A DNA stretch of 64,000 nt. It comes from Amoebophrya sp. A120. Taxonomy: Eukaryota > Protista > Dinoflagellata. The notes beneath the pieces were generated by a model, which made no database searches, was not told the DNA's origin, and was given only the letters and a program-made list of their open reading frames with translations. Both the position numbers and the translations under genes were made by a program. Position 1 is the stretch's first letter. Each line of letters opens with the position of its first letter. Positions 91 to 64,000 of this stretch are shown in pieces. The stretch is taken from the NCBI GenBank assembly GCA_905178155.1, contig CAJINV010000012.1, positions 802,004 through 866,003 of the forward strand, given 5' to 3'.

Positions 91-3000
91 TTATCGTCCA
101 TTTCCCATCCTTCTTCCGACTTCCTCAGTACTAGACTCATATACCTCGATGTACCTCCGTCCCAGCATCGCGTTGTGAAATTTGCTCACCGCGTCCCGGA
201 CATCAGACGCGTGGCGGAGCTTCACGTAGGCCTGGCCGGTGGCTCGGTTGCCGTTCTGTGATGATGTTGCGAGACGGTGGTTGTAAATTTCAATTTGTCA
301 TGCGAAACCAAAATGCCATGCATACGATGTCATGCGCATGCAGCAGAATGTACATCTACATTTTCATTTTTATGTTCTATACCTTTTCTATAATCACGTC
401 CTTGTCCGCCTGGACTCCGTAGCCGAAGCTTTATCCTGTGCAAAAGTATCGCGCTCGTACTAATTGCGTTTATGCATTACAAATCTCTTTACTAAGGCGA
501 ATCCGCATCACAATTTGATTTGTAATGCTAAGTGAATTTGTAATGCAATTTATACTAGTAAGTACGATACTTTTGCAGTTCATAAGCTCAAAAACTCTGC
601 CACGTCGTGCTCGGTAGACTCGAATGGCAACCCGCGGAGTCGTATCAAACGCAAAAATGTCTGGGTCTGGAAAATCATGCTGCATATTTCTCATGGCCCA
701 TGACGCCTGTAATGCTTGACCTAGCATCGCAGACCTCCTGATCGATGCACCTTCCGCATGAGAAATGGCCTGTCCGTGTAGCAAAAACTGCACCCCTCTT
801 GTTGCTGGTCATGCAAAAATCCAAATTTTTTTAGAGTCCAAAAACAGCATGACAAGTTGCAATCTTCGAGACCCAGACATTTTTGCAGTTGATAAGTCGC
901 AACCAACCGTAATTGTCTCCGCCACGCGATCGACTGTTGCCACGGGACCCTCGTGGGGCTGTTTTTGATTTTCATTTTTTTATGTTTATTTGCATTTCGC
1001 AAAAACTAACTTTACCACTGTGATTGTGCTTGAATGCATGACAAGCCGCGTAGTTCCACTTTTTTTGTTTGCAACACAAATCTTTCGCAAAATATTAACG
1101 AATTATACGTGATCTCCTCATATCGCGCTCGCGGCCGCCGTCTCGTCGCCCTCTGCCTTGCGTTACATCGATGTATCGCTCCTCCATGTGTTTTTTATGG
1201 AGGCACTTCACTGCATCAGCAGCATCGAGGTGACCTGATTTAGTGTTGGATATCCTGCATTCGTTCGAAAGTAGATATTCGTGGCCGCGGCCCCTTGCCA
1301 TTAAGCTGCAAGCATTCCATTCACTCGAGCGGAATTTGCTGCATCAAGAATGTAGTAGAAGACAGACTGACATCACATCAAAGTCATGAGGATGTCGCAC
1401 AGAGAAGAGCTAGAGCAAGGAAGGGCATCAACAAATATAATCAAAATCCATAGGTGTATCGTCGATCTAATACTCAGCATCTTCACTAGCGCACTTCCCG
1501 CTGGTCTTCCGTCCCGGCCCATTGTTATGTACACCTGCTGTGCCTCGATCATAAACTCTGGCTCGAAGAAATTCACCACGTCCCTCTTCGTCGATCTAAA
1601 CGGAATCCCGTTCAGCTTCACCACCAGCGGATCGTCCTCTTCCGGTGTGTCGTGGGCGACGTTAGGGATCTGGTAACTTGATTGTCGGCTCCGGTCATCC
1701 CTCTCGTTACCCTTCTTCCCGCCCGCAGATCCGGAGTTGAAGGAGCTATAGCTGTCCTGTTGCCAATATGAATTGCAAAAGTATCGTATTCATCGTATAA
1801 ATGCATTACAAACTTCCTCATTATGAGAGATAAAATTTGTAATGCTGATTTACCTTAAGAGATAGATTTGTAATGCATGATTGCAATACGAGTACGATAC
1901 TTTTCCACAGGATAGCCAGCCCTTCTTGCCGAAGTCGCCTTTTCCTTTTTTCCCCTTGTCCTTGCCGTCCTTGCCCTTCTTTCCTTTTCCCTTCTTACCA
2001 CCGCCCTCCGGCTCCCCAGTGCCCACCATGATGCCCTGGGCACCATAGTACTTGGAGAGTTCGTCGATGTCTTGTTGCGTGCCCTGGGGACGAGTTGATG
2101 TGTAGTGGAAGTTGAAAATGGTACTTCTAATTTGTTGAAGTTGGTACATCAATGCAAGGTCAAGGTTTCTAAAACTACCAAGGTGGTTGATCTGTCATGC
2201 GGGGAAAAGAAAAATGCAGAAAAAAAATCACTCCATGTACTAAAATACCTTGAACAGCTCCAAGTATCTCCCCCCGACAACTTCCCCGGCTTTCTCTGTG
2301 CAACACTGGTCGCGCGTTTCTTTATCATTCAAAAACATCCAACAGTTTCCGGATCTTTTCCCGCCCTTTTTACCGGACATGAAAACCTCAATCAGAATGT
2401 CGGCGGGTGTAACAGCTGTTGTAGTTTTTGACGATATTTGTCATGCGAACTCAGTGATTCATGATATTCATTCTTCCAGAAGCATTTCATGCTGGTTTGT
2501 AAAAATCCTTCTAGTACAGTGTTCTACTAAGTACTTTGAGTCACAGAATTCGTTTATAAAAGTCCATTTTACCGTATTCCGCGAAGATTGTCGCGATGTC
2601 CTCTTCCGACACGTTAAACGGCAACCCTCTCACTTTGATCACGTTTTCATTCGTGATGTTCATGCCATTCGGCAGGTTCAACACGCCCGACACCGGAATT
2701 GCGGTCAAGTACTCCAACACTTCAGGGGCGGTTTCCGAGGAAATTAACCTGTGCCTCAGTTTGTCCTTATGTGCGCCGTCGGAAGCCAGGACCTCGATGA
2801 ACCGGTTGCCCATATACTTCTTGTGGTACGCCAGAAACTTGTTAAACTCGTTCTGTTGTGTGGTTTTTTGTTTCAAATTTTGAAGATGAATTGCGGCGTT
2901 TGATGCATGAACATGGAAACCTCAAATGGGTTCGCATCACAACAAGTCAATAAGAAAACACAAAGTGGAAACATGAAACAAGAGATGATGAAAAGTCTAC

Positions 3001-3546
3001 TTATTCATCATCAACATTTTTCGCATGCCAAAAACTGTGAGCCAGAGGGAAATATTAGGTTGAAGGTTTTTAGCTTCGCCTGGTGCAGCTACGTGGCCCG
3101 ATAGCCGCCCACACCCAAGAGCCTACCTTTCCACCTAGCCCACATGCTCCTTCCCAAACCATATCCGGAGCCAAACCATATAGAGTCGAAGCGATTTTCA
3201 TTTCCACGATGTTGAGATGTTGAAGATGATTTTAGCCCTTAAGGCTCTTGTTTCCCGAGACGATCTCTTCACTTCTACCATTTCTCGTTTCTATTATCCC
3301 TGAAGATCCAGCGCACATGATAACCACCTCGCATAAGAAAGAACCCAGCATCATCTTTACCTCATCCACACAGTCGACATAGCACTCCCCCGCGTGTGGT
3401 TTGGTCCCTCCCGGACGATCAGCGAGAAAATGAATGGCCGCCTCGTCGACCTGACCGTCGAAGAAGTCGACAATCGAGACCGCGTTGGCCTCGAAAGGCA
3501 GGCCGCGGCAGCGGACGCAGAGCCGCTTGGGCATGTGGTCCACCAT
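91..3546 (-). CDS. Multi-exon hnRNP F/H / ESRP-like protein with several quasi-RRM domains
   Basis: Repeated qRRM motifs: VRCRGLPFEA, KKYMGNRFIEV, VIKVRGLPFNVSEEDI, VKLNGIPFRSTKRDVVNFF, LRLRGLPFE (restored after removing 643-894), MLGRRYIEVYES; stop at 91-93. Mix of GT-AG introns (e.g. 256-382) and introners. Confidence 0.85.
432..584. mobile_element. Introner family B
   Basis: TATCCTGTGCAAAAGTATCG...CGATACTTTTGCAGTTCATA; TSD AGCTT/AGCTC; removal restores frame. Confidence 0.9.
643..894. mobile_element. Introner family A
   Basis: TATCAAACGCAAAAATGTCTGGGTCT...AGACCCAGACATTTTTGCAGTTGATA; TSD AGTCG; splits LRLRGLPF. Confidence 0.95.
1767..1914. mobile_element. Introner family B
   Basis: Family B ends; TSD GCCAA/GCCAG. 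Confidence 0.9.
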
Positions 3547-4952: not shown

Positions 4953-6166
4953 CTACGCAAAATATCCCTCCGTCGGGTCCTTGACCGATCTCAAAGGCAT
5001 GGTTCCGTCGACACTTGCATCAAATGCAAAAGTGTCTGGGTCCGGGAGATTGCAAGACTTGTCATGCAGGTTTTCCATGACCCACGAGATCTGGAATGCG
5101 GGGCCTCCCATGACAGATTCTGTGGGGTCTCTATCATGCCTATCCTGCATGAGAAACTCCCTCTTAACTTGACCGAAAGTGGACAGCTTTTGGCACTCAT
5201 GCAACATCATTTTTGCATGGTTCAGATTTAGCATGACAAATTGCATCTTTGCAGACCCAGACATATTTGCAATGCATAACTTGCGTCTTTCTGCGCCCCG
5301 GCTTGTGACATCAGGTACTGATTTATGAATGTGCACAACTCCCCCTCCCCTTCATTTGTCATGCAAAATGTCGAATCGAGGCTGTGCCGCTTAGCACTGT
5401 TTGCATGATAAGTTCTGACAGCCCAAATAGCAGCACTACAATCCTGGCACATCTGTCATGCTAAACATGCAGTCTCGCTGGCACTTGTATTGCCGTTCAT
5501 GCTATAGCTATACAAATGAGGGGGAGGGGGAGTAGTTGTGCACTCTCATATGATTTAAAAAATATTTGGACTCCGTCCACCTCTGTGCGCACCGCCAGAC
5601 ACAGGTCTTCTGCGAGCTGGAGAGTTGTTTGGACGGGGCGCCGGGGTTGCACTGCTGGTAACACCTGGAAGAGAGCTTCAACATCTCTTTCTGCTCTTTC
5701 ATCACTTCCGCAAGCTGGTTTGGGTATCCAAGAAAAAAAGTTCGTCACGATCACTCATGCGCATTCTTGCAATACAAAATTGCTTGTCATGCGTAAAAAT
5801 GCATTACAGCCAAACTTCATTACGGATTTCCCTAGTGTTTCTGCAATACAAGGAAACTTTGTGATGCTGAGAAAATTTGTAATGCAAAACCTGCAAGTTA
5901 GATACTGTGACAAACTTTTTTCTCTCCATATTGAGGTTTTTTGATTTATTGGAATTGGTGAATCATGGTTATGGAGGGCTATCTACTTCAATTCGAATCG
6001 GGCGGGATGTGGTACTAGTACTGCATCACAGCAGGCTCAGCTAGTGAGCATCTACATCTCTTCATAGGTATGAACTACCAAAATTAAGAAGTAGAAAAAT
6101 GACCTCTACTACCTGCAGCACTGCAAGCTGCTGCTGTTGCGCCGCTGTCAGATTTTGGTCCTGCAT
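4953..6166 (-). CDS. Small Tim (Tim8/9/10/13 family) mitochondrial intermembrane-space chaperone
   Basis: Spliced MQDQNLTAAQQQQLAVLQ|LAEVMKEQKEMLKLSSRCYQQC...KTCVWRCAQRWTESKYFLNQYL; twin CX3C motif; one GT-AG intron and two introners. Confidence 0.85.
5018..5278. mobile_element. Introner family A (CATC left end)
   Basis: Family A TIRs; TSD ACTTG. Confidence 0.9.
5324..5550. mobile_element. Introner family C
   Basis: TATGAATGTGCACAACTCCCCCTCCCC...GGGGAGGGGGAGTAGTTGTGCACTCTCATA; TSD TGATT; removal gives FLNQYL. Confidence 0.95.
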
Positions 6167-8034: not shown

Positions 8035-11000
8035 TCACTCATCCTTCTGCTTATCTTTATTCCCACCAGCAGCGCCAGCTACCTGCTTGTTTTTCTGAAG
8101 TTGCGATGTCTTGGTCGCAGCGTTCGCTTCCACGCGCCCAGCACTAGAACCTGCAGCTTCTTCCGTACCAGCCGCACCATCACCTCCACTATCCCCTTTC
8201 TTCTTCAAAAATCCCTTCACAGACCTGACCACCGCTTTCAGCAACACTAGCGACAACCAGACCACGAAAATCCAGCCAATCACGGTTCCGAGAATGCTAA
8301 GCCGCACAGCTGTCTCGATGGAGTTCTTGTTCTCGAGAAGGCGTTTCTGGAGGTGTTTTAACCGAAGTTTCGCGGTGGAGGCGTCCGGGTCTGTGTCTTT
8401 CGTGCTTTTAGTATTCTTCTTGTTGTTCTTCCCAATGGAGGCTTTGTTCGCCGAAGTTGAACCTTCTTCCTCATCCAGTCCAACCTCCTTTATCGCTTTC
8501 GCAACGTTGCAGTCCACCCCCTGGTACACCGCATTGAATAGATCACTCAAATTTGTTTCATTTTCTCCATCCTCGTCCCCGACTGCAAGCAGCATCATCA
8601 AGGTTGAGGGAGAGAAGATCCTCAGCATAACCACCGAACTCGGCTTGGAAGAGGCCACTTTCCAAGAGGCACTGGCCACATCCCGCTTTATCACGCAATG
8701 ATCCAACACGGTGGACACCAGCTGCAAAACCAAACCCGCAATCGAAGTTGTGGCGTGCAAAAAGTTCGGCATGAGCAGTTCCTGGCCGTCTTCCCGCTCC
8801 TGCATCAGAAACTTCAACTGCCGGAAGAGGGAGTCGGGTATTAAGAGGAAAAATCCCCCCTCCCCGTATCGAAAAGGTATGTTTCCGGAAATTTGTGTTG
8901 CTGATTTGAGACCACAAATCACGTCTGTGTTGCAAGAAGGCAACTCCACAAGCTCCGCAGCATTGTGCGGGCGGTCTGTGATGCTGATGGGCCTACAGCA
9001 CGGACGTTTCTCATGCTAGACGCCTAGGCCAGAACCTCTCTACTCAGGCTTAGTATGGGGCTGCATTCCTCTCCAGCAAGACAAATCTTATTTGTGTACG
9101 CAAATCCTGCATTAGAAACTTCGTTTTGATATGGGGAGGGGGGATTTTTCCTACTTTTGATATCGGGGAGTTCTTTCTTGCTGTATTTCGCCTTCAACTC
9201 GTTGCAGTAGACGATTCTCCATCCTGTGCAACGGTATCGCACTCGTACTAATTGCAGATATGCATGACAAATCCAACCTTCTACCACAAATAGCATGACA
9301 AATTGCATTTTTGTTCTTGCGAAAATTATTTGTAATGCAATTTATACTAGTACGATGCTTTTGCACAGCATATCCTCTTCGCGATCTCCGGGTCGAAATG
9401 CTCGGACGACGCAGGAGCTGGTTGGTTATGGTTTTCGCCTTCCTGCTCTTTTCCGTCTTGTTTAGAAGATTTCGAAGCAGCACGACCAGCAGATTCCGAA
9501 GACCCGGACTGTGATTCATCTCCTGAGTCTAGTGTGGCTTTATTTGATGTTCCTTTTCCGCCTTGATTTGTTTTTACATACTTCGATTTGTTCTTGTTCT
9601 TTTTCGCCAATTTCTTCAGTCGTTTCTCCTCTTCCTCAGCCTATTTATGACAGTGCACAACTCCCCCTCCCCCTCATTTGTATAGCATGAAGTAGATGAA
9701 CGGCAATACAAGCATCAGGAAGAAAAAGAATGACGGTTTTGCATGACAAATTTGCACTGGAGTGTAGTGCAGCTATTTGGGCTACCAGAACTTGTCATGC
9801 AAACAGTGCCAAGAGGCAATGTGTGGATTGGGTGCGTTGCATGACAGATGAGGGGAGGGGGAGTTGTGCATTGTCATACCATTCCTCGACCTGTTCACAG
9901 TACAGCACCGCAGAGTGTCCGAACAGACCCGCCTTCTCGTAATTTTCCGCCGCTTTGTCCCGGTTCCCCGTCCGCAGCGCGAGTTGAGCGGCGCAGAGAA
10001 AGGGGGATTCGATGCAGGAGGCGGATTCGTGTTTGTAGATTTCCATTTCCTCGCTGGGAGTGGTTGTAATGGTCCCTGTGAACAAAGGCAGCTGCTGCAC
10101 CTCCGGCGATAGCTGCTTGCCAAGCACAAGCTGGTCGTGTGCCGGAGTACTCGTTGTTGTCCCGTTCGCCACTAACTCAAACGTGATCGCCGATTGATCG
10201 CCCGCCACGTCCATGCTGTCGCAATTTTCGCTCAATTGGCAATACCCGGACTGGTAAAACGTCAGGAACCTACACACTTGCCGGTCCTTGCACTCCCGGA
10301 CGCAGGACTGGAAATTGTGGTCGCCCTCGTTGTAAAGCCATTTTTGCTTGCCCTTTTTACAGTCGCCGGAAGGGCAGCAGAAAAAGTACCGGGAGAAGGG
10401 AAGGAGAAGCTTGTCGACGTCCACTTGCGAGGTCATGGATGAATCGACTTCACCGGCCTGCGTTAATACGGACGACGCTTCCGTATTGCTGGCACGACTA
10501 CTGCTTCCCGAGTCTCCACCTCCGAGCGAAAGCATGGACTTGATCATGGAGCTTGCAGTCGATTTTATTGTTCCAAGATCATTCCCTCCCCCCGTTAAAT
10601 ACTGCTCGATATCACTTTTCGAGAATTTTGACAACAAATCCACCGCCGACCTGGCCGCCAATTCGTGCCCCGTTTCCGCTATCAACCCGTACACTAATGC
10701 CGCTCCGGGAGACACCCGGCTCGTCGACAGCCCCCGGGATTTTGAGAAGTAAATCTCCTGCGTCCTCGTCGCGATCGCGTACATTAGCCTCGACACGGGT
10801 TCCATATCGTACGCCGCGTTTAAGAGGTGCTTTAACATCGGGCAGAACAAAGCGGATTGTTTTTCTCTCAAATCCAACAACCGCACCACCATGTACTCGT
10901 ACCTCTTTTCCGAGGCCATGGTTAACACCGCCAGCTGGTCACTCGCCTGCTGCGATTCCTGATAGGAGTGTAACAAAAGCAACGCCTTCCAGATATCGAC

Positions 11001-14000
11001 AGGAAAAATCCCCCCTCCCCATATCAAAACGGAAATCTGTGATGCAGATTTGTGGTCACAAACCAGCTTTGTGATGCTAGAAGGCAAGAGATGCAGACTG
11101 CAGTGCTGTCTAGCGTGGGAAAGCCTTGCAGCTCCAGGATGACAGGAGGCAACTGGAAGTGTGAAACAGCATGACAGATTGCCTGCAATTTAGGCCGCAG
11201 CTTTGTCTCTTGGCCTTCTAGCAATACAAGTCGATTTGTGTACTCAAATACAGCATCACAAATTCGCGCATCTTCCGTTTCCGATATGGGGAGGGGGGAT
11301 TTTTCGTTTCAATACCAGATTTTCACGTTCGCGGCAATCCGACCGTGGACTTGCACGGCCAGTTCTAATATCAAATGTAAAAATGTCTGGGTCTGGAAGA
11401 ATCATGCTGTTTCTGCATGACACAGAAGGACTGGCATGGAAGCTCTAGCATCACAGGTTTCGAGAAGCTTCCGCAATGCCGAATCCGCATGACAAATCCT
11501 CCACTTTGGTGACAGAAGTGAGCAGCTTTTGCTGCCTATGCATCAGAGATTTTTGTGTGTTCTGAAATGCGCATCACAAGTTACATCCTTCCAGACCCAG
11601 ACACTTTTACACTTGATATCTAAGTAGTAAAGCGCCTTCTCCAAGTCATAGGGTCTGATCCGCAGGACGTTTGCCAATTTTTGCTCGTCGGATTGTTTGT
11701 CCGCCGCGTGATTCTTATCGTTGCTCGGGGTGCTCCCCACCGCAACAACTTCCCGCATGTACTCATCCGCAAGCATCAAAGCCGCGTTTCCATCCCCAAG
11801 ATCCGCGGCTACCTTCAAATATTCCCCCGCAGTCTGTCGCATGTGGGTATGACGTCGCGTCATGTCGTTTTTGTGGATCGGGTGGTAGTCGTTTTTGGAC
11901 AAGTATTTGTCGATGAGTTTTTTGTCGTCGTATTTGGTCGCGAAGACGTAGAACTGGCACATCGCGTAGGTCGAAATCACCTCGATGTTGTCGGATAATT
12001 CGATGTTTTTCGGGATAAACCGCGCGACTTTTCGGTCTTCATTGGCCCAAACAGGTTTCGTCCACCCCGCGCGGGTTTTGAAGTCCGGCATCGGGACCCC
12101 GTGCTCTTTTTCATATGCGTCGCCGTACAATAGAGGTGCTTGTTGCTCCACGATCGTGGCGCGGACGTCTTCTAATTCTTCGTCGGTCACGTCGAACTCC
12201 ACATCCAACACGTTCTTCACCTCGGCCATCAAGTCCACCCCTTTCGTAACGTCCCCGGCTTGCACGGCGATTAGCGCGAGTTGGTAGGTATGCACTGCAA
12301 ATATGTCTTGTCTGGGTCTGGAAGATTCCTAGATTTGTCATGCATATTAGACACGGCTCGAGACTCTGTGATGCATGGGCTGGAACAGGCCCTCTTACCT
12401 GTCGCGCAAAAACGCAGTCTGTCATGCGGAATACGCAGCAGGAGCAGCAGCACATATTTTTACCAGCCCATGCATTATTTTGTCATGCTTGGCTGCGTAT
12501 TGCAGTGCGCATACCGTTCAGCTGTAGCATTACAACTTTCCAGACCCAGACACATTTGCAATGCATAGTAGGTCGCCTGCCACGACCCCTTGGTGGCGGC
12601 CTCCGCGAACAGCTCGATGCCTTTCTCCTGGTCTTGTCTCATGCGGATGTGCTCCTGGGAAAGGCTCAGGTTGAGAAAGAAGAGGAAAAGCACGAGGATA
12701 ATTACGCAGATGACGGGGCAGTCCCGTTTTGTGAAGAGGGGTTTATTTGGTTGCTCGGCGCCGGTAGTGGGGCTTTGGCCGTCTGTAGTCTTGTTGATGC
12801 CGTCTTGGTCTTTCTCTTTATTCCCCGCACTACCTGCAGCAGTCTTCTTTTTGTCTTTATTCATGTCAGTCAGAACGAGTTTACTTTGTTCACCAGAGCT
12901 GCTACTTCCTACCGCAACAGCGTTTTTCCCGCCGTCTTCAGCAGAAGTTGCAGCAGCTCTCGGCGACTCTTTCGGGCTCGCGGTTTTGCTGTTCTTCCCA
13001 GAGGATCCCGTCGTCGATTCCTTCGATGTGGTTCTTCTGCTGTTCTTTTTCCCTTTCACTCCTGGCTCTGCACTGCTATCGGTTCCATCTTCTACTTTGT
13101 TCTTCGCCGATAAACCTCTCTTCCGACAAGCAAAACCGCAACAGCAGCAGAAGATTTTGCTACAACAACCTCGGCAGCAAACCCCGCGAAACAGTAAAGT
13201 GCAGAGAACAAGAAAAACGAGCAAAACCGCGCAGACGAAAGCGCCGCCGCCTAGAATTTCGTAATCGACCTGCAGTTGGGGCAACTGCCGGTCTCCGTAG
13301 AACAAAGCTTCCGCCGTTCGCTGCATGCCGTTCACGTCTCCCCGGAGCATCTGATCCCAATGGAAGATCGCCTCGTTGTTTTCCACAATGTTCTGCCACT
13401 CCATAAACTCCCGGGAAACCGGTTGCGGCACTGGGTTCTGCTCGTACTTCGACACCGCGTGCACAGCCGTAGAATGAACGAAATTCGACAAGGTGAAGGA
13501 TCTCGCCTTGGCATCAAAGTTTTTGCTCGCCTCTTTTTCTTATCAAATGTAAAAATGTCTGGGGCTGGAAGAATGCAACTTGTAATGCGTATTTCAGAAC
13601 ACAGAAAAGTCTCTCATGCATACGTAGCAAAAGCTGCCCACTTTCTGTCAGCAAAATAGGGGACTTGTCATGCGGATTCGGCATTGCGGAAGCTTCTCGA
13701 AACCTGTGATGCTAGAGCTTCCATGCCAGACCTTCTGTGTCATGCAAAAACAGCATGACTCTTCCAGACCCAGACATTTTTACATTTGATATTTCTCGTT
13801 TCTGCATGTTTTCCTTCTCCTCCGCACGCATGGCCGCGAGCTGGTTCTGATGACCTGTTCAAGCGTTACAATCTCAAACAACGTTGCAATAGAATCTGGA
13901 AATCTGGGATGCAAGAACTGCATGACCTAGCCAAATCTCATAGGACTGCGCATGACAAGTTCCGGAGTCCCAAACCGCACTACAATCTGGCTAAATTTGT

Positions 14001-33218: not shown

Positions 33219-33474
33219 TATGGATTGCAAAAATGTCTGGGTCTGGAAAGATGCCAGGTTTGGCGTGCTCTGCTAGCATGACTGTCAAGTCTGTCACGCA
33301 AGGTGCCCGAAAGCGCCACTTTTGTGTCATGCAAAAACCCAGTTTCTCATGCAGAATAGGCAACACCTAGCGACTCAAAAACCTGTCATGCTGAGCCGTC
33401 AACATTTCTGGCGTTCTCTTGATTCGCCAACCAGCATCACAAGTTTCCAGACCCAGACATTTTCGCAGCTGATA
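33219..33474. mobile_element. Family A element in apparently intergenic position
   Basis: TSD TAAGG. Confidence 0.9.
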
Positions 33475-35630: not shown

Positions 35631-35720
35631 TTGCCAAAACTAGAACATTGCACAGCCTGCAGTTGCCAAAACTAGAATTTTGCACATTTGCCAAAACTAG
35701 AAGAACCGTTCTTGCCAAAA
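35631..35720. repeat. Short degenerate repeat TTGCCAAAACTAGAA (three full copies, one partial)
   Basis: Read directly. Confidence 0.7.
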
Positions 35721-49300: not shown

Positions 49301-52300
49301 TTCTGTTCATCGGAGCTCGTCGGGAGTTTGAACCCATTGAAATTCAGCGACTTCAAAACAAAGGGCTTCAGCGCAGAAGCGACTCTGCGTTGCAAATCGG
49401 CACGAGCTGTCGTGGACGAAGAAGATGTGGCTGCTGTCGTTCCATGATCTGCGTTATTTTCGTGATTCCCTCTCGGCATGAGAGATTTCAGCAGCACTCC
49501 GCTGAACGCGCAGCCCGGGAACACGAGCGTTGGATCGTCTTGAGGGTGGAAGGGCTTTTTGATCAAGTGCTGCGGAGGCGCAGTGGCGGTGTCGGCAGGA
49601 CTAGGAACACCACCTCCGAGGGCCTCGACAGCAGCGGGTATGGTAGAAGCAGCAGTGACAGGCGGCGCTCCAGTGTTGGAAAAGATGGTTTGTGTTGAAT
49701 CATCAAGCGTTGATGATGGCCCCCTTGCAGCTCCTGCCCCAGGGCGGGCTACCGAATTTGTCGTTGCAGCAACAACAGTCGTCGCCCCGAGCAAGCTCTT
49801 CTCAACCAGATCCGTCATCGGGGACAGGAGGCTCTCCGGTAAGAGTTCCGCTATTTGGTACAGTGCCGTCGCGAAAAGACTGAAATCCTCCCAGATACGG
49901 GATGTCGCTTTTGTATCGTTCTCTGTCAACGCCGCGGTTAGCGTCGTGTGGATATAGAAACACAGCGGGTCAGTGTCGACGGCGACGGCTGTACTGGAGG
50001 CTTGCTTGACGGAGACAGATCTTCCCGCTCGTACTCCTGTTGGGCCATGCATATTACCGTTCTTAACTCCGCCACTATAATAGCTGCTGCTACTGAAGCA
50101 GCTTAATAGTCCCTCCTTCTCCAAGTAGCTGAACATCAAAACTGCAGTTTGGACCAAAGCTTTCGGCAAGTACGACTTCCGGTAGAAATCTTCCAACACC
50201 TCCGCCAAACGCCGTAACGAGGACCGGATCAACTGTCGTTGCTGCGCCAAAATCCTATACCCCTGTCCGATCAACATCGTGCTCTTCATCGTCGCGTCTT
50301 GAATCGGTGCGAGCTCGTTCCGACCGGTGAGGCTGTTCTTCAGAAAATAGCTCGATTGGTCGAAGAGTAGTGTGAGTTTCGTCGTGTTTAACAGCATGAT
50401 GCGGATTAAACCGAGGATCAAAGTTCTCGACTCGGGCATCGCCCGGCAGTTTACCTGTTTCGCAATCAAACGGTTCACCTCCTGTAGGCGTTTTCTTGAT
50501 AAATTTCGCTGACTAGGGGAGAAATCAGCTTGATGTTCTGGATCTTTTTCTTGTGGTCCTGCGAATTGTTGGTCGTGCACATGATTGTCCATCACGAGGA
50601 CGTCTTCTCCTTCGCCCAACCTTTTCAACGTCAGCGCGATCGTATCTTCGAAGCTGCTGATGGCGTGGAATTCGGAGTCTCTGGACAAAAAGTTCCTCTT
50701 CTCGTCTTCCTCCTGAAGTAGGAAAAACCAAAGAGACCGGCACACCTCGTCGAATTCGGCGAAGCACAGGGTACTCGACGTACTAGAAGCGGTTTTTAGT
50801 TGAGCAGCTCCTTCTTGCGACATGATTCTTTCGCTCGTATTAACCCTGTTCTCTATCACAACCTGCTGCAAATCGGAGGGAATGCCCGCGAAAAACCGTA
50901 GGAGCAGAAAGTGCCGCTGCAGAATCTCCGCAGCCTTTTCGTTTTCCTTGTGAATCCCGTCGCAGCTCTGGATGTCGAGAAAGTGCTTTTGTCTTGATGA
51001 TGTTGTTCTTGTTGTCGCAGTAGAACTGTTTGAACGATTTATTGCATTTGCATTTGGAATTTCATCTTTGTTCCTTGTTTCGACATGATCCACCGCGGAA
51101 AACGCAACTCCAAGAATTTCCCGTTCCAAATTCGGGTCGAAATTGTTCACGAAGATCTTCAACAACAGTTCCAAGATCCTCGGTCTAGCGGTATGAACTG
51201 CAAAAGCATCGTACTAGTATGAATCGCATGACAAACATCCTCAGCATGAGAAATGAAATTTGTAATGCGGGTTCAACTTAACAGAGAAATTTGTAATGCA
51301 TAAATGCGATTAGTACGAGTACGTCATTTTTGCAGTTCATAAGCGGCCCGCGGCATCGATTTCAGTGTTTTCTCCACGAGTAAGACCGCCTGGGAAAATT
51401 CGGCCGCAGTCCAAAACGGCTGGATCCGCTTCCCCTGCGAGATCAGCTCCATCTCCTGTTCGAGGAGCTTCCGCTGGGAGGGCGGTTTTTGGTTTTGTTC
51501 TTTCCTACTGGAATTTGCAAGACCTCGGGATGAAAATCCCGATCTCCTCCCACCTCCCGGGCTCACACTGCTCCTCCGCCTCACTCCTGATGAAGACGAG
51601 TTTGTGTCTTGCCGACGTCGTGGCTCACCCGCAACATCTCCTCCGCTCATCGTCGCTGCCAGAGCCGAATCCAAGCTTTCCAGCATGACCCGCAAGGGAA
51701 CGAAGTACTGCACGTCGTTTCTCACCAGTGCCTGGAACAGCTTCCGGGGGTCCTTGGATTTGAAATATTCCTTCACGGCTTTTTCATTTTGCTCAGTCGT
51801 GTTATTCAGGTACCAGTTGTGCTGCGCCAGTTTCGGGAAGACCACCTGAAAAACAAACGCATCGGAGAAAGTGCGAGAGTGGAAGGAAGGAGGAACAGCT
51901 GACTTGTTCTTCGGAGTCTTCTTTGCGGAAGATGTAGTAGAGCCCGAATCTTTGTCTGCACTACTTCCACCAGGGGCAAAGCTGTTAACATCGGAGGTCG
52001 CCGCAAGAACAGAGCTCCCCGTGATCTGTTCCAGTGTGAACTTCGAAACCGATTCGTTCTCGTGGTTCACACAGAGGGTGAACAAATACTCCAAGTAGCT
52101 CGTCGGGACTTTCAACTGCTCAAACTTCTCCCAATTCTGCCGGACCCAGTGCGACGCGAATTCTTCCAACGAGTCGAGAATCGCGAAGAACGGCGTGAAA
52201 ATTTGCTTGTACTTCGGGTTGATCACCCTTTGAACCAAAAAGATCGCCCGTTTTCTCGTGCGGGAATTGGACATCGCTTTCTTCAACAGGGGCCAGGAAG

Positions 52301-54883
52301 AGTGCAGGAGGGGCGTGGTGACCAGGAGGTGTTGAGCGCCGCTGTCTTGCGATGATGAAGTAGAGCCATTGCCTTTGTTTGTCATACTTGACATTCCACG
52401 CGCACCCTGAACCAGTGCCGACGATGTTGACGAAAATCGGTTTGTCTCCTGGTTTATCAAATGTAAAAATGTCTGGGTCTGGAAATATGCAAGATTTGTC
52501 ATGCATCTTTCTCATGACCCATGATGCCTGTAATGCTTGAACTAGCATCGCAGACTTTTAGAGGGCTTCCTGATTCACCTTCCGCATGAGAAACGGCCTG
52601 TCTGTGTAGCAAAAACTGTACCCATTTTGCTGGTCATGCAATACATCTTTTTTTAGAGTCCAAAAACAGCATGACAAGTTGCAATCTTCCAAACCCAGAC
52701 ATTTTTACATTTGATATGGTTCGGTTGCTCTTGCGTGGGCGAGGAGTTGTAGAGAACTCCGTCGATAAGCTTGGTACTTCTGGCGGTTTTGGTTCGGGAA
52801 TTCCTTTCGTCTCCTCCGTGCGACGACCCTGCAGCAGGAACGGGCTTTGCCTTTGCTGTCCTCCCGGCCGCATTGGGAATCAAAATTACATCGTCGTGTT
52901 CGAGATCAACATCACCCTCGGCAACTGGATCATTCTTCCGAAAGTCTTCCGGCCACAACTCCCCCTCGCAATCGTAGGCCTCGAAATGGTCGTAGCCAAG
53001 GACATCCACCGTCTGCTCCGGGTACAGAACCGCGATAGAGAGCGCATCCTCCCACGCATTTTGGTTCAGAACCAGCTCGGAAACCAGCTTCGCAAGAGTT
53101 GTGGTTGATGTAGTGCTTCCTAACGAGGATAAATCGAAATCTCCACCAGTAGTTGCAGATGATGATGAGTTATCTCGTCCCTGAAGATCTGGCTTGGTCA
53201 TTTTCTTTTCCACAAAAACATGCAAGAATTCCCTCGCTAGCCGCAAGCGGAAGTTCCCGTCCTCTTTCGCTATGTCCGAGTGAAGCAACACTTCCAACAG
53301 CTCCTTCTTCGGGATTAAGAGGGATAGCAGGTCTTTTTCGGACGGCGCGGTTGAAGAGGCCTTGACCTTGTCGTCGCCAGGTCCTACTCCAAGCGGCTTC
53401 AGCTCCTCGTGGTGCACTGCAGTCTTGTTGTTTTCATCGTAGTGGTACCTACCGCCCCCATCGACAAAACTCCTGGCGGAGTGATACCTAGACTGCAGTC
53501 TCTCCGTGTAGGCGAGGGAAGTCCCCGGCAGGTGTCTCGTGTGGATTTCCACATCAACGTTATTTTGATCATGCTGCGGATCATCAACTGCGCCGGTTTT
53601 TAACCTTTCTACTTCTGCACGATTCCCCTCGTTAAATGCCTCCTGCAGCCCTTCCACAGCTTCCTTCAAATGTCCGACCTGCTCCACGCTACTCAAGGAT
53701 TTCAACCCCTGTTTGAAAAAAGCGGAAAACCGGCTCGCACGGAGGTTCACTTCAAAGGCCCAGCCGAGCAGGGCGAACGTCTGCTTGAAGGTGAAGGTGC
53801 TTTTCTTGCTCGATTTAGTTCCAGCTGCGCTCGACGTGCTACTAGTAATATTTTTGCCGACCACAGCATTTCTATTTCCAGCCTGTGGATTTGCTCCTCG
53901 TCCATTGTCTGCGAAAGGAACGCAAATTTCGCTGAAAAGCGAGTGCGTGCTCGCCGCAGCCGCGTTTTTTTCCCAGCAAGCGGAGACGGTCCGGAGCCAG
54001 AGGTCCTCTAAAACGATGCGTGGTGCGACCTCGAGGCATTTCAGCGAGTTTTTTTCGCTGCACCCACGGAGAAAGCGGAGGTACCACAGGGAAAGGAGGA
54101 GACCTGGTGTTGTAGCAGTGGGGACAATGTCAATGAATTCGATTTAAGTACATATGCATTCGAATGCGCGCCGGCGGGGGCGGCGGCGGCGGCGCATGAG
54201 AAACAGAAACGAAATTTGAAGATGTTGTGAGAAAATATCATATAGGCGGGCTAGCGCTAGGGATAGCAAATACTCCTGGCATATTATAGTACGATTCGAA
54301 TTCACATACCTATGGCTTGCTCAGATGTTACAATCTCAAACGTTACAATAGAATCTGAAATTTGTCTTGCATGACCAGCATGAGTACCATACAGAGACTT
54401 GGGCTTTTCACAATACAAATTTCGTCAGATTCTCATGGGGTTTGGGGCGCCGAAACTTGTCATGCGCGCTACTTTGGGAGTAGGCCAGATGTTGCGGATT
54501 TTGCAAGACAAGTTCCAAATTCTATTGTAACGTTTGAAATTGTAACACCTGAGCGGGTTATAATACCTTCCTCCCTTTTCTTTTCAATCTCCTCCGGCCT
54601 TTGGTTCTGCTCCTCTCCTCTTTTCAACAAGCATTTATCCACAGAAAAAAAAACCATCCACATCCAATCTGTCATGCAAAACACGTATCAAATCATGTGT
54701 TTGCCATGCAAAAAATGCATGTGGATGGGTTTTTTTCTGTGGATAGCATTCTATCCGGTAGTACACCGGAAGTTGGCAGTGCTTGCCCCAGGTCGGCTGC
54801 ACCACTGTGTCAAGGAAGGTCTCGCCGCTGCTCAGGCTGTCGCAATTCAGCAGAAAGGACTCCACGATTTCGTACTTCATCAT
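40345..54883 (-). CDS. TARBP1: tRNA Gm18 2'-O-methyltransferase (TARBP1/Trm3-like), SpoU domain at the C-terminus; 5' exons less certain
   Basis: Reassembled IVVASLIDKAPNLAGLARTCEIF...SVTAEKW...IIGVEQT...LLLGAEKEGLP...[28 protein letters not shown]; also HREQLRAWQAVVVL; 22 introner-like elements in the span. Confidence 0.88.
40395..40752. mobile_element. Introner, divergent family N
   Basis: TATCC...GGATA; TSD GTACT; removal gives WEYVRQ. Confidence 0.85.
40812..41119. mobile_element. Introner family K
   Basis: TSD TCCCC. Confidence 0.95.
41163..41427. mobile_element. Introner family A
   Basis: TSD GGATC. Confidence 0.95.
41615..41843. mobile_element. Introner family C
   Basis: TSD TGTGT/TGGGT. 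Confidence 0.9.
42067..42217. mobile_element. Introner family I
   Basis: TSD CGGCG. Confidence 0.95.
42264..42565. mobile_element. Introner family L
   Basis: TATC...GATA; CCCCAGA/TCTGGGG IR; TSD ACCGC. Confidence 0.85.
42660..43632. mobile_element. Introner family I with nested TIR element
   Basis: TSD TCACT. Confidence 0.9.
42685..43492. mobile_element. Nested non-autonomous DNA transposon with long imperfect TIRs
   Basis: TGAGCTGGGCGCC...GGCGCCCAGCTCA; flanking duplication CCGTACAT/ACGTACAT. Confidence 0.85.
43900..44108. mobile_element. Introner family J
   Basis: TSD CCATC. Confidence 0.95.
44173..44327. mobile_element. Introner family B
   Basis: TSD ATCTC. Confidence 0.95.
44492..44743. 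mobile_element. Introner family A
   Basis: TSD TTGTC/TGGTC. Confidence 0.9.
45099..45361. mobile_element. Introner family A
   Basis: TSD CAGCA. Confidence 0.95.
45436..45691. mobile_element. Introner family A
   Basis: TSD CACCT. Confidence 0.95.
45739..45950. mobile_element. Introner family J
   Basis: TSD TAATT. Confidence 0.95.
46242..46391. mobile_element. Introner family B
   Basis: TSD TAGTC/CAGTC. Confidence 0.9.
46879..46993. mobile_element. Introner family H
   Basis: TSD AGCTT. Confidence 0.95.
48043..48359. mobile_element. Introner family F
   Basis: TSD TTCGG. Confidence 0.95.
48409..48569. mobile_element. Introner family B
   Basis: TSD TCAGC. Confidence 0.95.
51192..51341. mobile_element. 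Introner family B
   Basis: TSD AGCGG. Confidence 0.95.
52455..52716. mobile_element. Introner family A
   Basis: TSD TGGTT. Confidence 0.95.
54145..54291. mobile_element. Small degenerate TA...TA element
   Basis: TSD CGATT; weak IR (ATATGC/GCATAT). Confidence 0.55.
54311..54562. mobile_element. Introner family G
   Basis: TSD ATACC. Confidence 0.95.
54636..54745. mobile_element. Introner family H
   Basis: TSD GCATT. Confidence 0.95.
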
Positions 54884-55962: not shown

Positions 55963-58100
55963 TCATGAAGCAGCTCCAGTCGAACCGTAATAAGGTTTTT
56001 CAACCCGATCCTCTACACTATCTTCATCCTTATTGTCATTGTCCCCAAGAACCCCAGCAACTTTTACATCAACATGTACACCGTCAGAATTGTCCCATCT
56101 CCCGAACAAATACAACGCCGCGCCGCTCAAACTAAACCCCAGCCCGAACATCTGGACGACTCTCAACTGCTTTTCCAACAGGTACAGACTCGTCCCAATC
56201 AGCAAGACCTTGTTTGCCGTCGCCTATCAAATGCAAATATGTCTGGGTCTGGAAGAGTGCATGTTTGTCATGCTTGTCTGGCGTGACTCTTAAATCTGTC
56301 ACGCACGTTACCCAAGAGCCCCGCTGTGCTGTCATGCAGAAACGCAGTTTGTCATGGAGAATAGGCAACACCTAGAAGCTCAAAAGCTTGTCATGCTGAG
56401 CCAGCACCTGTGGCCTCCTCATGATACGCCACCCAGCATCACAAGTTTCCAGACCCGGACATTTTTACAATTCATATCGCCTGGACGGAAGCGAAAAACG
56501 AGCCCGCGTGATGGATCAGCATCGTGTCGGTTAGAAACCACATTTATGCTGTGCAAAAGTATCGCACTCGTAGTAATCGCAGCCATGCATTACAAATCTC
56601 GATCCCATTCCCAAGGCAAACCGGCATGACAAACTCCATTTCTCATGCTGAGTAAATTTGTCATGCGATTTCTACCAGTACGATACTTTTGCAATGCATA
56701 ACATTGTGGTTGTGACAATTTTGATCAAGAAAGCGGTGAAAACCGGAAGCTGCGCAAATTTTTCGCCGATTATGTCCTGTAAGGGCTCATCCGAGGCGGA
56801 GGTAAATTGAATTTGCATGATCGCCGAGCCACTTTGAGTTTGTTGTAGTAGTGCAACTTCTCCAGATGTGGAAGTGGAAGTCGTTCCAGCTGCACTATTA
56901 TCCCCACCGCCAACACCCTCGTTCCTATGTCCACCGCCGCGCAAAACCTTCGTCCCAAACTCCTCGAAAGGTGCGGTCCCCTCGAACAGCAGTGACAAAA
57001 CCAACAAGCCGATCACGTTCAACGGACTCAACAGCCGGACAAGGAGAAAAGTCGTTTTCAGGTCCGCTTGTTCCTCCTTCCGGACCATTGCTTCTTCGGT
57101 GAAAAGCCGGACGGAAACCGCGAATATCACCGCGAAAACGGATAATGCTAGCCCGACCGCAGTGAAGGACATTTCTTCCGCCCCGTACCCGAACAGACAG
57201 CCGCCGACGGTGAGAGAGAGAGCCGCGATTGGAGCGGTTTTTGCGAGAACTTTCCCTTGGTAGAATTCCGCGAGGAGTAACTGCGGGATCACCTTTGTTA
57301 TCCTGTGAAAAACAGTATCGCACTCGTATTAAAACTAATCGCGACACTGCATATACAAATCAGATTTTCTACCTGCGGCTGGTCCAGTTCTAGCATCACA
57401 AAAGATTGCAAATGCGATTTCTGCTATGTAGTGCGTCGATGCTTTTACAACCGTGCATATCGGTCATTTGGATCATGGAGTGGAGAGAGGGGACGAGGAA
57501 TTTCAAAGCTCCGTTGTGCGTCGCCCCGGACCCGATGTTCAGGAAGCCGAGGGGCAGAATCTCTTTGTAGAAGTCGTAGTCTAATTCTTCCTCGTCCTTG
57601 TGCTGCTCGTCCCGAGCGGCCCCCGACGCTCTCTTGGTCTTGCTACGGTCTTGTTCACCAGCAGCGCTAGGATGAAGATCCTGCGCGTCGTGTTCATCTT
57701 CCGTACTGTGGTTCTCTGCATCACGCCCTGACTGCTCGTCTTTCCCGCCTTCATCATCCTCTACAGCTGTAACGCCATTCGGGTTATTTGACGGCGACCA
57801 AAACAACGCGACTAGAATCACCGCCAGGAAAACGACAAACGTTTGGTCGACGACGGTGAGAAAAACCGGGTAGGGGAAATCATATCTTGTGCAAAAAACC
57901 CGAAGGAGAAGGTGGTAAACGACGTAGCCGGTTGCGTTTGCGACGGATTCCGCGGCGATAGTAGCTACCGACGCACCGGAGGTAATGCGGCGTTCGAGGT
58001 GGTGGTTGGTCCTCGGCGTGATTAGTCCTGCTCTTGGATGAGGTTCAGGAGATTTTTGGTGCTCGGGATCTTCCACATCGATATGGTCGTCATCCTCCAT
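55963..58100 (-). CDS. Triose-phosphate/nucleotide-sugar transporter family (TPT/SLC35, DMT superfamily)
   Basis: YDFPYPVFLT, ILPLGFL...HNGALKFL, SFTAVGLALS, LLSPL, QMFGLGFSLSGAALY; many TM helices; three introners. Confidence 0.85.
56225..56476. mobile_element. Introner family A
   Basis: TSD TCGCC. Confidence 0.95.
56545..56700. mobile_element. Introner family B
   Basis: TSD ACATT. Confidence 0.95.
57299..57459. mobile_element. Introner family B (degenerate)
   Basis: TSD TTTGT/TCGGT. Confidence 0.75.
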
Positions 58101-61728: not shown

Positions 61729-62550
61729 ATGGTACCACATCAAGTTGATAAGGAAGTCTTGAAGAACTGGTATGTCTGAAACATGTTCAACTTCAACTTC
61801 AATCTTCTGGCGAAACTTTGCAGCTTAAGTAGGTAATCGAATCCTTGAATTTCAATTTCTTCTGTGGTAGTAAAAAATTCCTTGTACAGGTACGGAACCA
61901 AGGCCCGCCACGAAGAAATCTCGAAGAAGAATGCTCGATTGTGCGACTTCTGCGAATGTTGACGCACTGACAATAGCAATACAACAAGATACAATAAGCT
62001 TTGCAGCTTGCCGCTCTCTTGCAAGAGAGAATGGGAAACATGAATGGGTATAAAAATAAATATCAAAGCACCCACAATGATGAATCTATAATCTAAACAG
62101 CGTTCTTCAGAAAGATTTTGATGATCTTCGAGAAGATATGTTGACGTTTGCAAGTAGAAACACATCGATCACGTGCAGCCTAGATAAACTTCGTTGACTC
62201 ATTTGCATTTCATATTCCAGATACATAGAATTAGAATTCCTCTAGTCAACCTTCTGCGCACCCAGCTGGCTCCCGCCAGCACCGGGATAAAGTATACAGC
62301 TTGCCGCTCTCTTTCAAGAGGGAAACGTGGATGGAAAGAAGTATTTTCTCAAAGTCCACACTGACGCTAAAATTGGTTTCGCTCCTACTAGGTTCCGCCG
62401 GGAAAATTTGCCAGAGAACAAGAGCGACGAAGGCTCTAGAAGTACTCCTGTGGGCAAATGAATCATGGCATCATGTGCAACCTAGAAGTAGTAGACCTTG
62501 AATTTTTTTTCTCTTTGTTCAAAAGAAAACTACTACAACCTCCTCACTGT

Positions 62551-64000
62551 TTATTTATTGTCCGGCGCCACCTGGTGCGCTCCCGGCTGACCGCTCCCCA
62601 TGTTGATCCCCATCCCTGAATCACCACCAGCAGAATTGTCGATCGGCGGACTAGTCACAACGACTGTCACCGGTGGACCGACCAAATCCGCTTTTCCGGA
62701 TGTCCGTGCGGTCTCATCGACGCCTGCTCCTGGGACTGCTGAGGACGACGAAGCTGCTGCTGCGCTATTTCCCATCGGCACCATCTGTGCGGTGGTCAAC
62801 TGCGTCTGTTGTTGCTGCTGCATCTGTGGTGCTCCCTGCTCCATGTGGGATTTGGTGAATGTGTTGAAAATCTGTTCCAGACTCGTGGGGGAGATCGCGT
62901 ACTCCTTGATCTTAAACTGGACCTTCACCGATTCCAATAGTCCGAACAACTGCCCAAGTTTCTTCTGGTCGGCGAAGATGCGAAAAGTGACCTGCTCACT
63001 ACCGCCCTGCGAATCGGTGAGGAAAGCGCCGGGGAAGGTCTGCGCCACGTAGTCGGTCAGGGTCAAACGGTAGACGGATTGGGTTAACCTGATTTGTATT
63101 CATTTTATTTTGCGTTGCTAGTGCAAGACCAAGATGCTTGTCATGGAGGACAGGAGCGCGCTGTGAAGCTGGAAATGCTCTACTTGAATAGAATCCCTTT
63201 GTTCATGTTCTGACTTAGAATTATGAAAGCCGCCCGCAACCTAAAAAAGAAAATCGTATACCAGTGCAGAATCACTTTCGCCTTGCAGGTTGACGCTTGC
63301 ATCTCCAGCAGCTCGTCGTTCCGGATCTTGTCCTATCAACTGTAAAAATGTCTGGGTCTGGAAACTTGTGATGCTGGGTGGCGTCTCATGATGAGGCCAC
63401 AAATGCTGGCGCAGCATGACAAGTTTCTGAGCTCCTAGGTGTTGCCTATTCTGCATGACAAACTGCGTTTCTGCATCACAGAAAAGCGGAGCTCTTGGGT
63501 AACGTGCATGACAGATTTAAGAGTCATGCCAGACAAGCATGACAAGCCTGGGAATCTTCCAGACCCAGACATTTTTGCATTTGATATGTCCTGCGGTTTG
63601 CTGCTCAGCCGCGCCACGCTCGCATACGGACTCGCACGCGAGGCGCGAAGTAAGAATTGAATCCGCTGCTGCAGTGGCCAAACTGGGTCGTACTGGTGGA
63701 GCAGTTGGCACAGGTGGATCAGCATGATGTTACTGTTCATCGCATTCACATCATCCGGATTCAACATCGCATTGCTACCCAGAAACGTCGTCCATAGTTG
63801 TTTTTGCTCCGTGAAACTCGGGGACTCTAACTTCACGTACAAATCAAACCCGTTTCCGTACTGCGCCTTGATTTCTGGTATCGATTATGCAATACAAATT
63901 TCCCGTACATGTAAAAGATGCATCACAAATTTATTCCCCAATTTGCCGTGTGAAACTTGTCATGCTAAACTAGGATCGAAGCCAAATTTTACCATGCAGA
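62551..64000 (-). CDS. ABCA-subfamily ABC transporter, C-terminal part (continues beyond the window)
   Basis: IPEIKAQYGNGFDLYVKL; LGQLFGLLESVKVQFKIKEYAISPTSLEQIF. Confidence 0.85.
63334..63586. mobile_element. Introner family A
   Basis: TSD TGTCC. Confidence 0.95.
63886..64000. mobile_element. Introner family I, cut by window edge
   Basis: TATGCAATACAAATTTCCCGTACATG left end. Confidence 0.85.

Follow-up and report, generated by a model that had tools for sequence, protein, structure and literature searches.

Why should intron families with different arms and different interiors all carry the same short word? The question is raised by a 64,000-nucleotide stretch of the Amoebophrya sp. A120 genome (contig CAJINV010000012.1, positions 802,004 to 866,003; hereafter the window), in which 61 short inverted-repeat elements ending in TAT...ATA hold most of the copies of one 9-mer, GCATGACAA. 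The sequence-only reading of this window had taken the 9-mer for a shared cis code and for the best candidate for the recognition signal of non-canonical splicing, naming as possible roles a site for a splicing factor, a transposase site and self-pairing RNA. Our analysis favours the second of these. The word, GCAWNACARA in consensus, forms an array that is likely the binding site on double-stranded DNA of the protein that mobilises the elements, most likely one shared transposase, and not an RNA splice signal; we put the probability of this reading at roughly 0.6.

The elements are non-canonical introns of the Amoebophrya A120 introner type. Scanning the window for TAT...ATA pairs that have paired arms and are flanked by a duplication gave 55; the set of 61 is completed by five whose end is changed or whose duplication is mismatched, and by one that the window end truncates. 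The sample was widened with 149 metagenome loci (L001-L149, 544 kb) chosen by an arm word, which favours families F0 and F1. Window and loci together gave 372 structure-defined elements in 54 clusters, 16 of them with at least five copies, and a homology search gave 413 element copies, from which 24 with at least three duplication mismatches and one more that could not be placed were dropped before counts were made. The 16 families (5-110 copies each, 109-322 bp) have the traits of MITEs (miniature transposable elements with inverted repeats), being short and numerous, with terminal inverted repeats, a target duplication and no coding capacity; in seven longer composite copies the longest stop-free frame spans 85-150 amino acids. 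A logo of the 372 elements gives the end signature TAT(C/G)N6AAA, with C or G at position 4 and A at 0.87-0.93 at positions 11-13. TAT itself is the search rule of the structure scan, and is kept at the two ends in 398 and 386 of the 413 homology copies.

Each element is flanked by a 5-bp target duplication of free sequence, perfect in 310 of the 413 homology copies and with one mismatch in 63. The length of 5 bp is fixed by an RNA-like contig, presumed to derive from RNA, in which the element plus five bases is skipped; three elements are skipped there exactly, each with one duplication copy. This RNA evidence covers 40300-58000, a region in which two raw RNA runs contribute 58 and 2 reads and are uninformative. 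Excising elements in this way rebuilds an 8,019-nt open reading frame (ORF; 11 listed copies) and a 4,428-nt ORF (six copies), and reunites both halves of a histone deacetylase (HDAC) domain. The removal is not of the GT-AG kind, as the duplication bases show no GT/AG bias. By ORF rebuilding, 301 of 388 classified copies lie in coding context.

The enrichment of the 9-mer within these families, as first reported, is real and no artefact. The window holds 75 exact copies on both strands, compared with a mean of 0.91 and a maximum of 4 in 100 dinucleotide shuffles, and 131 copies of the degenerate form GCAT[G/C/T]ACAA (shuffles: mean 2.04, maximum 7). The 61 elements, 13,441 bp in total, contain 70 of the exact and 125 of the degenerate copies, whereas eight further elements of nested or inverted-repeat type (3,854 bp) contain none of either and the remaining 46,705 bp contain five and six, respectively. 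Three of the five exact copies outside elements lie in GT-AG introns recognised by eye (295, 1036, 2438) and two within long ORFs (18989, 48812). Six of the eight example positions in the sequence-only reading are exact; those given as 848 and 40568 are one base late (847 and 40567). Intergenic MITEs of other kinds lack the motif, so it is not equally common there, yet this comparison does not discriminate, because the outcome would be the same for a transposase site as for a splicing signal.

Of the 16 family consensuses, 11 contain the exact word GCATGACAA, 10 contain GCATCACAA and 7 contain GCATTACAA. A matrix seeded on GCAWNASA finds 82 interior sites with the consensus GCAWNACARA(T), or 2-7 per family compared with 0.03-0.37 per family in shuffles. 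Six positions are nearly invariant (1.5-2.1 bits, partly from the choice of seed), and the sites fill the whole interior at one per 30-59 bp. Outside elements the matrix falls to background, 0.6 per kb, and thus no sites belonging to the host itself are evident. All 61 window elements hold at least one matrix site. The claim that every family carries several copies of the 9-mer in both orientations went too far: five of the 61 elements lack the 9-mer, and the sites of F3 and F7 point one way only. That the families are otherwise unrelated holds for most of them, with two qualifications: an alignment above shuffles (z>4) persists in 12 of 120 family pairs once sites and arms are masked, leaving about nine lineages independent at that level, and the end signature and 5-bp duplication are common to all.

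The clearest property of the array is its geometry. Pairs of sites in the same orientation lie 31-33 bp apart 24 times, compared with a mean of 2.7 and a maximum of 9 in random layouts, and pairs in opposite orientation lie 15-17 or 46-49 bp apart 24 times (random mean 6.7, maximum 19). A signed spectrum over 183 pairs from the 16 consensuses, with same-orientation pairs counted positive and opposite pairs negative, has a sharp peak at 10.5 bp with an amplitude of 0.55, matched by none of 1000 random layouts at any period from 8 to 14. In the full set the phase also holds for pairs over 36, 55 and 100 bp, and in two subsets of nine families 0 and 1 of 1000 random layouts match it at all distances. 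It is likewise present with the 9-mer pattern of the sequence-only reading (45 sites, 2/500) and without mirror-image pairs (0/500). Four control words are flat at 10.5. The 35 elements outside the training families peak at 10.5 as well, weakly (amplitude 0.16, 17/500), and the exact sites of the window peak at 10.4 (79 pairs). The outermost site is also phased to the element end (R 0.60, 0/10,000), lying 36-37, 44-48 or 56-59 bp from it if directed outward, and 39-41 or 47-53 bp if directed inward.

The helical repeat of B-DNA is 10.5 bp and that of A-form helices about 11; to our knowledge, single-stranded RNA has no 10.5-bp phase. Like-oriented sites are thus separated by whole turns and opposite ones are displaced by half a turn, a geometry that places every site, in either direction, on one face of a duplex, which points to a protein reading double-stranded DNA and favours the DNA-binding option among the three originally named. 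The same phase could arise without a base-reading protein if phased CA/TG steps made the element bendable in one plane, or positioned a nucleosome-like particle (a nucleosome or a dinoflagellate nucleoprotein), and the word is indeed rich in CA/TG steps. However, its six nearly invariant positions resemble base reading, and AA/TT steps in the consensuses have no 10.5-bp period, masked or unmasked, so we regard a purely mechanical code as improbable. In the spacers, after masking of the motif, AA/TT autocorrelation peaks near 11.75 bp (amplitude 0.29).

Conservation of the word indicates when it matters. Across 389 copies the motif core differs from the consensus at 0.045 per site and the spacers at 0.222, in line with the shared, selected cis code first proposed. 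Core alleles are mostly confined to single copies (111, compared with 41 shared by at least three copies), unlike spacer alleles (835 and 981; odds ratio 3.2, p 1e-10); broken sites thus arise but rarely spread. Four indels of at least 3 nt are shared at one position by at least three copies, and two of these are 10 and 11 nt. Private core changes are equally frequent in coding (137/6,249, 0.022) and non-coding copies (14/602, 0.023). In older copies the core decays at 0.030-0.032, like the acceptor-side terminal A (9/264), and at about half the duplication mismatch rate per pair (0.055-0.061). Loss of sites across copies fits a binomial; phase coherence decays in intronic copies, with 22 of 229 below 0.4 (F3 left out of this per-copy measure), and 162 private 3-nt insertions were counted in 301 intronic copies. 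Families under 8-10 copies were left out of the nearest-neighbour tests. That motif changes rarely spread, together with equal decay in coding and non-coding copies, suggests that selection acts at transposition.

These data also bear on whether the word is a neutral remnant of one ancestral tandem repeat from which all families descend. The 12 related pairs would fit such a history, as would the shared ends, which show one superfamily. Spacers between tandem sites are nevertheless unlike each other, and both orientations occur, linked to half turns; conservation of the core is five times that of the spacers, and its changes are filtered at spreading. The single-versus-shared allele test already contradicts a neutral relic, and we give this explanation almost no weight.

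In the mechanism that we propose, protein molecules bound on one helix face would bend or wrap the element and so bring the two TAT ends together for cutting; its 110-320 bp are close to, or short of, what DNA needs to loop freely. Copies with a broken array would stop multiplying, and families with different arms and interiors could share one enzyme through their common ends and the array. Because ends and duplication length are common to families whose arms differ, and because the host shows no excess of sites, a transposase shared by all families is the most likely binder.

The elements of the window are listed below by coordinates, with no strand assigned. Numbers give site centres within the element; > marks the word on the plus strand and < the word on the minus strand.

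432..584: F2 element; 47> 78> 93< 111<
643..894: F0 element; 69< 86> 118> 168< 209>
1767..1914: F2 element; 41> 75< 106<
5018..5278: F0 element, acceptor-side end changed (CAT for TAT on the plus strand); 46< 78< 95> 134> 218> 254<
5324..5550: F9 element; 37< 84> 134< 166<
5725..5930: F12 element; 49> 64< 81> 123> 139< 157<
8839..9162: F5 element, no exact 9-mer, six matrix sites; 59< 91< 142< 174< 242> 275>
9220..9372: F2 element, acceptor-side end changed; 47> 78> 115<
9646..9878: F9 element; 62> 100> 151< 198>
10994..11314: F10 element in the 4,428-nt rebuilt ORF; 48< 80< 180> 232> 264>
11369..11618: F0 element; 51> 84> 123> 176> 207>
12289..12567: element with F0/F1-type arms; 51< 82< 135< 163> 196< 243> 272<
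13541..13791: F0 element; 44< 75< 129< 168< 201<
13849..14104: F14 element, acceptor-side end changed (GAT on the plus strand); 60< 106> 153< 185< 201>
15298..15576: F6 element; 45< 77< 147> 180< 229>
15642..15753: F7 element, sites 32 bp apart, complement only on the minus-strand transcript; 41> 73>
18202..18352: F13 element in the HDAC gene; 39> 73< 105<
18423..18631: F4 element in the HDAC gene; 36< 67< 126> 142< 160<
19152..19462: F6 element in the HDAC gene; 46< 100> 133< 165< 233< 266>
20266..20478: F11 element in the HDAC gene, no exact 9-mer; 36< 52> 146< 163<
21661..21813: F2 element; 41> 62> 78< 109<
21875..22551: F9-type element (ends TAT..GTA) with a nested motif-free insert of ~400 bp (about 21985-22380)
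22591..23176: F0-type element with a nested insert of ~310 bp (about 22675-22985)
23283..23518: F9 element; 62> 97> 148< 195>
23950..24099: F2 element; 76> 92< 113< 143<
28143..28368: degenerate element, single remaining site; 60>
28414..28561: F2 element; 41> 59> 75< 106<
28659..28815: F13 element; 8> 39> 73< 105<
28853..29104: F1 element; 37< 85> 124> 144> 177> 208>
29205..29455: F1 element; 37< 84> 123> 143> 176> 207>
29551..29696: F2 element, no exact 9-mer; 69> 85< 109<
33219..33474: F1 element, no confident coding context; 77< 110< 130< 169< 220>
37113..37348: F8 element, alternating sites 46-49 bp apart; 47< 95> 144< 190>
37400..37666: F0 element; 44< 75< 133< 172< 221>
38543..38780: degenerate element, no exact 9-mer, one site; 189<
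40395..40752: degenerate element; 80> 138> 177> 299>
40812..41119: F6 element (ends TAT..GTA); 46< 93> 126< 232> 263>
41163..41427: element with F0/F1-type arms; 37< 85> 191> 258<
41615..41843: F9 element; 56> 91> 143< 193>
42067..42217: F13 element; 8> 39> 73< 105<
42264..42565: F3-type element, one site orientation only; 55> 86> 142> 267>
42660..43632: F13 element; an 810-bp inverted-repeat element without an exact 9-mer is nested at 42684-43493
43900..44108: F4 element in the 8,019-nt rebuilt ORF; 50> 68> 84< 127< 143> 174>
44173..44327: F2 element; 38> 56> 72< 103<
44492..44743: F1 element, duplication copies differing at one base; RNA-like contig keeps the fourth base of the upstream copy
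45099..45361: F0 element; 44< 75< 129< 186> 218>
45436..45691: F0 element; 57> 90> 129> 182> 213>
45739..45950: F4 element; 36< 67< 83> 129> 163<
46242..46391: F2 element, duplication copies differing at one base; RNA-like contig does not keep the fifth base of the upstream copy
46879..46993: F7 element, spliced with one duplication copy (46874-46993 skipped), transcript strand with the complement only; 41> 79>
48043..48359: F6 element, spliced; 47< 156> 188> 224< 274>
48409..48569: F2 element, spliced, separated from 48043-48359 by a 44-nt exon; 41> 62> 78<
51192..51341: F2 element; 39> 57> 73< 104<
52455..52716: F0 element; 46< 78< 95> 134> 181< 219>
54311..54562: F14 element; 56< 63> 151< 197>
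54636..54745: F7 element, orientation opposite to 46879 and 15642; 38< 70<
56225..56476: F1 element; 45< 76< 109< 129< 168< 216>
56545..56700: F2 element; 47> 84> 100< 118< 149<
57299..57459: degenerate element, one site; 99>
63334..63586: F1 element; 37< 85> 124> 144> 177> 208>
63886..64000: F13 element, cut by the window end
255..381, minus strand: likely old GT-AG intron without recognisable arms, one perfect site (295-303), boundaries by eye
954-1109, 2124-2228, 2419-2573, 2852-2999, 54151-54310, 63089-63270: other likely old GT-AG introns, by eye

If the word were instead read in RNA, a splicing factor would bind it on the pre-mRNA, or copies would pair, folding the intron and joining its ends. 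Orientation argues against the first form, and so against the motif as the recognition signal of non-canonical splicing in this sense. None of the 16 families is biased in orientation relative to the host transcript (301 coding copies), and site totals in the intronic copies are balanced, 769 sense and 823 antisense. F3 and F7, whose sites each point one way, are found in both gene orientations (8:14 and 4:5). On the transcript strand, 21 of the 301 intronic copies lack the word and 16 lack its complement; among those without the word is 46879-46993, which is spliced with the complement only. Decay of the core, equal in coding and non-coding copies, shows no constraint on individual sites and also speaks against an RNA signal, although one site among several may be needed.

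Pairing fares somewhat better at first sight: in predicted folds, 94 of 164 sites pair with a second site at a probability over 0.5, and the stability of most interiors exceeds that of shuffles, with z down to -8.3. However, F3 interiors are no more stable than shuffles (z +0.9, +0.6), and neither F3 nor F7 offers its sites a motif partner. Variable positions show no covariation, with matches in 22 of the 92 inverted and 25 of the 92 tandem pairs. Changes in the core show no G-U asymmetry (61/3,414 making G-U, 60/3,523 making A-C); in the arms, the G-U comparison for selection on an RNA hairpin gave 162/5,979 and 139/5,995 (p 0.18), with no clear sign either way. The spectral period is 10.5 with nothing at 11, and the arms pair in 32 of 32 folds (0.70-0.99), so no extra fold is needed. 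The RNA-level explanation is therefore largely refuted already, and we hold it to be highly improbable.

Splicing would use another code, consisting of the paired arms and the first T of TAT as base +2 of the donor. The first T at the donor end is the only strand-specific constraint: it is changed in 0 of 301 copies, compared with 10 of 301 for the mirror base on the acceptor side (p 0.002), and in 0 of 264 older copies, and it is the only one of 30 arm positions compared with p <0.05. Two junctions with differing duplication copies, read from piece ends in the RNA-like contig, bound the register, as the fourth base of the upstream duplication copy is kept at 44492-44743 and the fifth is not at 46242-46391. 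If the register is uniform, these two junctions make the intron likely N-TAT...ATA-NNNN, the T being base +2 of a GT-like donor in which the first base is unconstrained; the cut would likely leave four bases from the upstream duplication copy and one from the downstream copy. Codon and GC-direction tests on 71 duplication mismatches gave no clear direction for the register. Either orientation could be spliced, because both element ends are alike.

Another explanation keeps the array at the DNA level and gives it to splicing. A host protein would bind the phased sites and mark the element for removal, or bring a substitute for U1 during transcription; one or two sites would suffice and single losses would be tolerated. 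DNA-level definition would make splicing blind to orientation. By this account the host protein would hand any array-bearing element to a spliceosome without U1, so that any transposon evolving the array would become a clean, orientation-blind intron, with the array also driving its spread. A site is kept in all 61 window elements and in 371 of 372 elements overall; motif-free TAC...GTA elements with 5-bp duplications sit between genes; and U1 small nuclear RNA was not detected in Amoebophrya, according to the available text of PMC7789003. Against this, core decay is the same in coding and non-coding copies, site loss is binomial and spreading filters out motif changes; in intronic copies the phase loses coherence and private 3-nt insertions are common. 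We consider this explanation unlikely, both as DNA-level intron definition and in its extended form.

The sole element without a site, L076 4890-5016, is an F7 element with intact arms and both sites broken, in frame inside a 746-amino-acid ORF with a weak Sec23/Sec24 match, and is possibly an exonised introner. Such in-frame read-through has almost no discriminating power, since neutral loss predicts ~0.1 such unsafe copies, giving a likelihood ratio near 1.1.

Several observations weigh against a mobilising protein as the reader of the array. (i) No transposase or integrase family was found in 30 window ORFs and 139 locus ORFs (~0.6 Mb), no long TAT element with a large ORF was found in window or loci, and Farhat et al. 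found no transposase in A120, according to the available text (PMC7789003); to name a transposase over a host bending cofactor is thus a guess. (ii) The zero-site element is one of 5/301 copies readable through in frame (2/227 in another count), as expected if one site is needed for splicing, and seven of eight old GT-AG introns recognised by eye in the window still hold a site. (iii) Pairs beyond 100 bp are not significant in the nine-family subsets (51 and 366 of 1000), and F3 is unphased at 10.5 over its length (R 0.10; 0.75 at 10.2). (iv) The test of 3-8-nt against 9-12-nt indels is not significant (p 0.54). (v) If constraint acts on the exonic duplication copy, the core may decay at a rate up to a third below neutral; the decay comparison also counts unsampled active history in its terminal branches, has a non-coding group of 32 copies, and its neutral rate may be somewhat higher. 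(vi) The 301 coding calls rest on ORF rebuilding, with three junctions whole in the presumed-RNA contig. (vii) In Tn7-like CRISPR-associated transposons (CASTs), as described in the available text of PMC10201428, sites cluster at the ends of one family and the protein is known, whereas here the word, in both orientations, runs through the interiors of many families, whose elements serve as introns too.

Several features of the window lie beside this argument. Of the likely old GT-AG introns, several begin GTAT or GTA, with one or two motif sites each; introns of this kind are possibly introners decayed into canonical introns. An ab initio GT-AG intron finder returned 307 candidates, mostly false, which were left out of counts. 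The elements nested in introners (42684-43493, ~21985-22380, ~22675-22985) disrupt the phase across their host element, and that at 42684-43493 has its own arms and a 6-bp duplication. The 8,019-nt ORF (~2,670 codons, about 43630-54140, minus strand) emerges after introner removal, and its larger exons have no Pfam match. The HDAC gene (PF00850; 17654-20600, minus strand) is interrupted by four introners of four families. Single-copy insertions are most often 3 nt (190), with 51 of 6 nt, compared with 49, 41 and 29 of 2, 4 and 5 nt, in coding and non-coding copies alike; most of the 3-nt and 6-nt excess is not tandem duplication, and deletions have no such bias. The 3-nt and 6-nt excess could be an unexplained mutational or repair bias, which might also accelerate changes in proteins.

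Intergenic inverted-repeat elements with TAC...GTA ends, 5-bp duplications and no motif lie at 6522-7333 and 33862-34516, and are possibly a sister group that never became introns; the loci add two candidates for further motif-free inverted-repeat elements with 5-bp duplications. Also intergenic and motif-free are a near-perfect foldback with 156-bp arms and two clusters of palindromic repeats (16915-17300, 25300-25551, 32614-32845). A plus-strand ORF of 310 amino acids (59844-60776) without a Pfam match lies inside an otherwise minus-strand gene block, and a ~45-bp repeat has three copies near 59176, 60744 and 61677, among other duplicated stretches at 58.5-62.4 kb. In viral contigs the arm word is absent and none of 53 tandem-motif matches lies in a TAT element; an Rfam scan of the window found no family.

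If the array binds a mobilising protein, a single phased word across different arms would explain how one enzyme mobilises many families, the word acting as a bait to catch it. Two codes on the same 110-320 bp would then be separated: one in DNA that serves spreading, and a minimal one in RNA, made up of paired arms and the N-T donor, that serves splicing. Were the array to serve a host factor on which splicing depends, introns would in this case be recognised from DNA.

Elements of this kind are known; what is new is the internal word shared by families and its helical phase. As far as the available texts go, the A120 introners of Farhat et al. (2021, PMC7789003) and Gozashti et al. (2025, PMC12130899) have inverted repeats of TAT, seven variable bases and AAA, as here, and 3-5-nt direct repeats (5 bp in the legend of Fig. 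S19) with non-canonical splice ends (PMC7789003), again as here. Our family lengths of 109, 150, 209, 216, 252, 262, 279, 308 and 322 bp match the list of 106, 149, 208, 214-227, 252-261, 278, 305 and 319-322 bp (PMC12130899). Amoebophrya is reported to have tens of thousands of non-canonical introns, with no transposase, family-specific end motif or U1 found in what is available of PMC7789003, and the mobilising enzyme and superfamily are left unknown in the corresponding parts of both papers. These parts do not mention an internal motif common to families, helical phasing or a fixed splice register, nor do the available portions of two reviews (PMC11282704, PMC11453091) mention an internal motif. 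A search of freely readable literature text on the words, Amoebophrya introners and phased internal MITE or introner sites turned up no account of the motif or phase among the matches listed.

Other systems share parts of this design, in what their available descriptions cover. The nonconventional introns of euglenids and the non-canonical introns of Fritillaria are MITE-derived, with paired ends and duplicated targets, as here; their end signatures differ, and the accessible text of PMC11282704 mentions no internal DNA-phased code. IS3EU/GingerRoot elements, an integrase-like clade, have TA..TA termini like those found here, but their duplications are usually 6 bp (PMC10045372); with 5 bp, our elements were not filed under this group. 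IS481EU has similar TNT..AYA ends but duplications of 4, 15 or 25 bp (PMC10045372). The Stowaway MITE Ost35 differs in its Tc1/mariner partner and TA target, with no shared phased word described in the available text, yet its interior enhances transposition and is shaped by selection for cross-mobilisation, as we propose here (PMC3660474). The ends of Tn7-like CASTs have repeated TnsB sites spaced by helical pitch and a bend by IHF (PMC10201428), and are alike in spacing and end-phasing. Sleeping Beauty, with inner and outer sites and HMGB1 (PMC5224488), likewise has several short sites per element and a proposed role for them in a paired-end complex, such as we suggest for the introner array.

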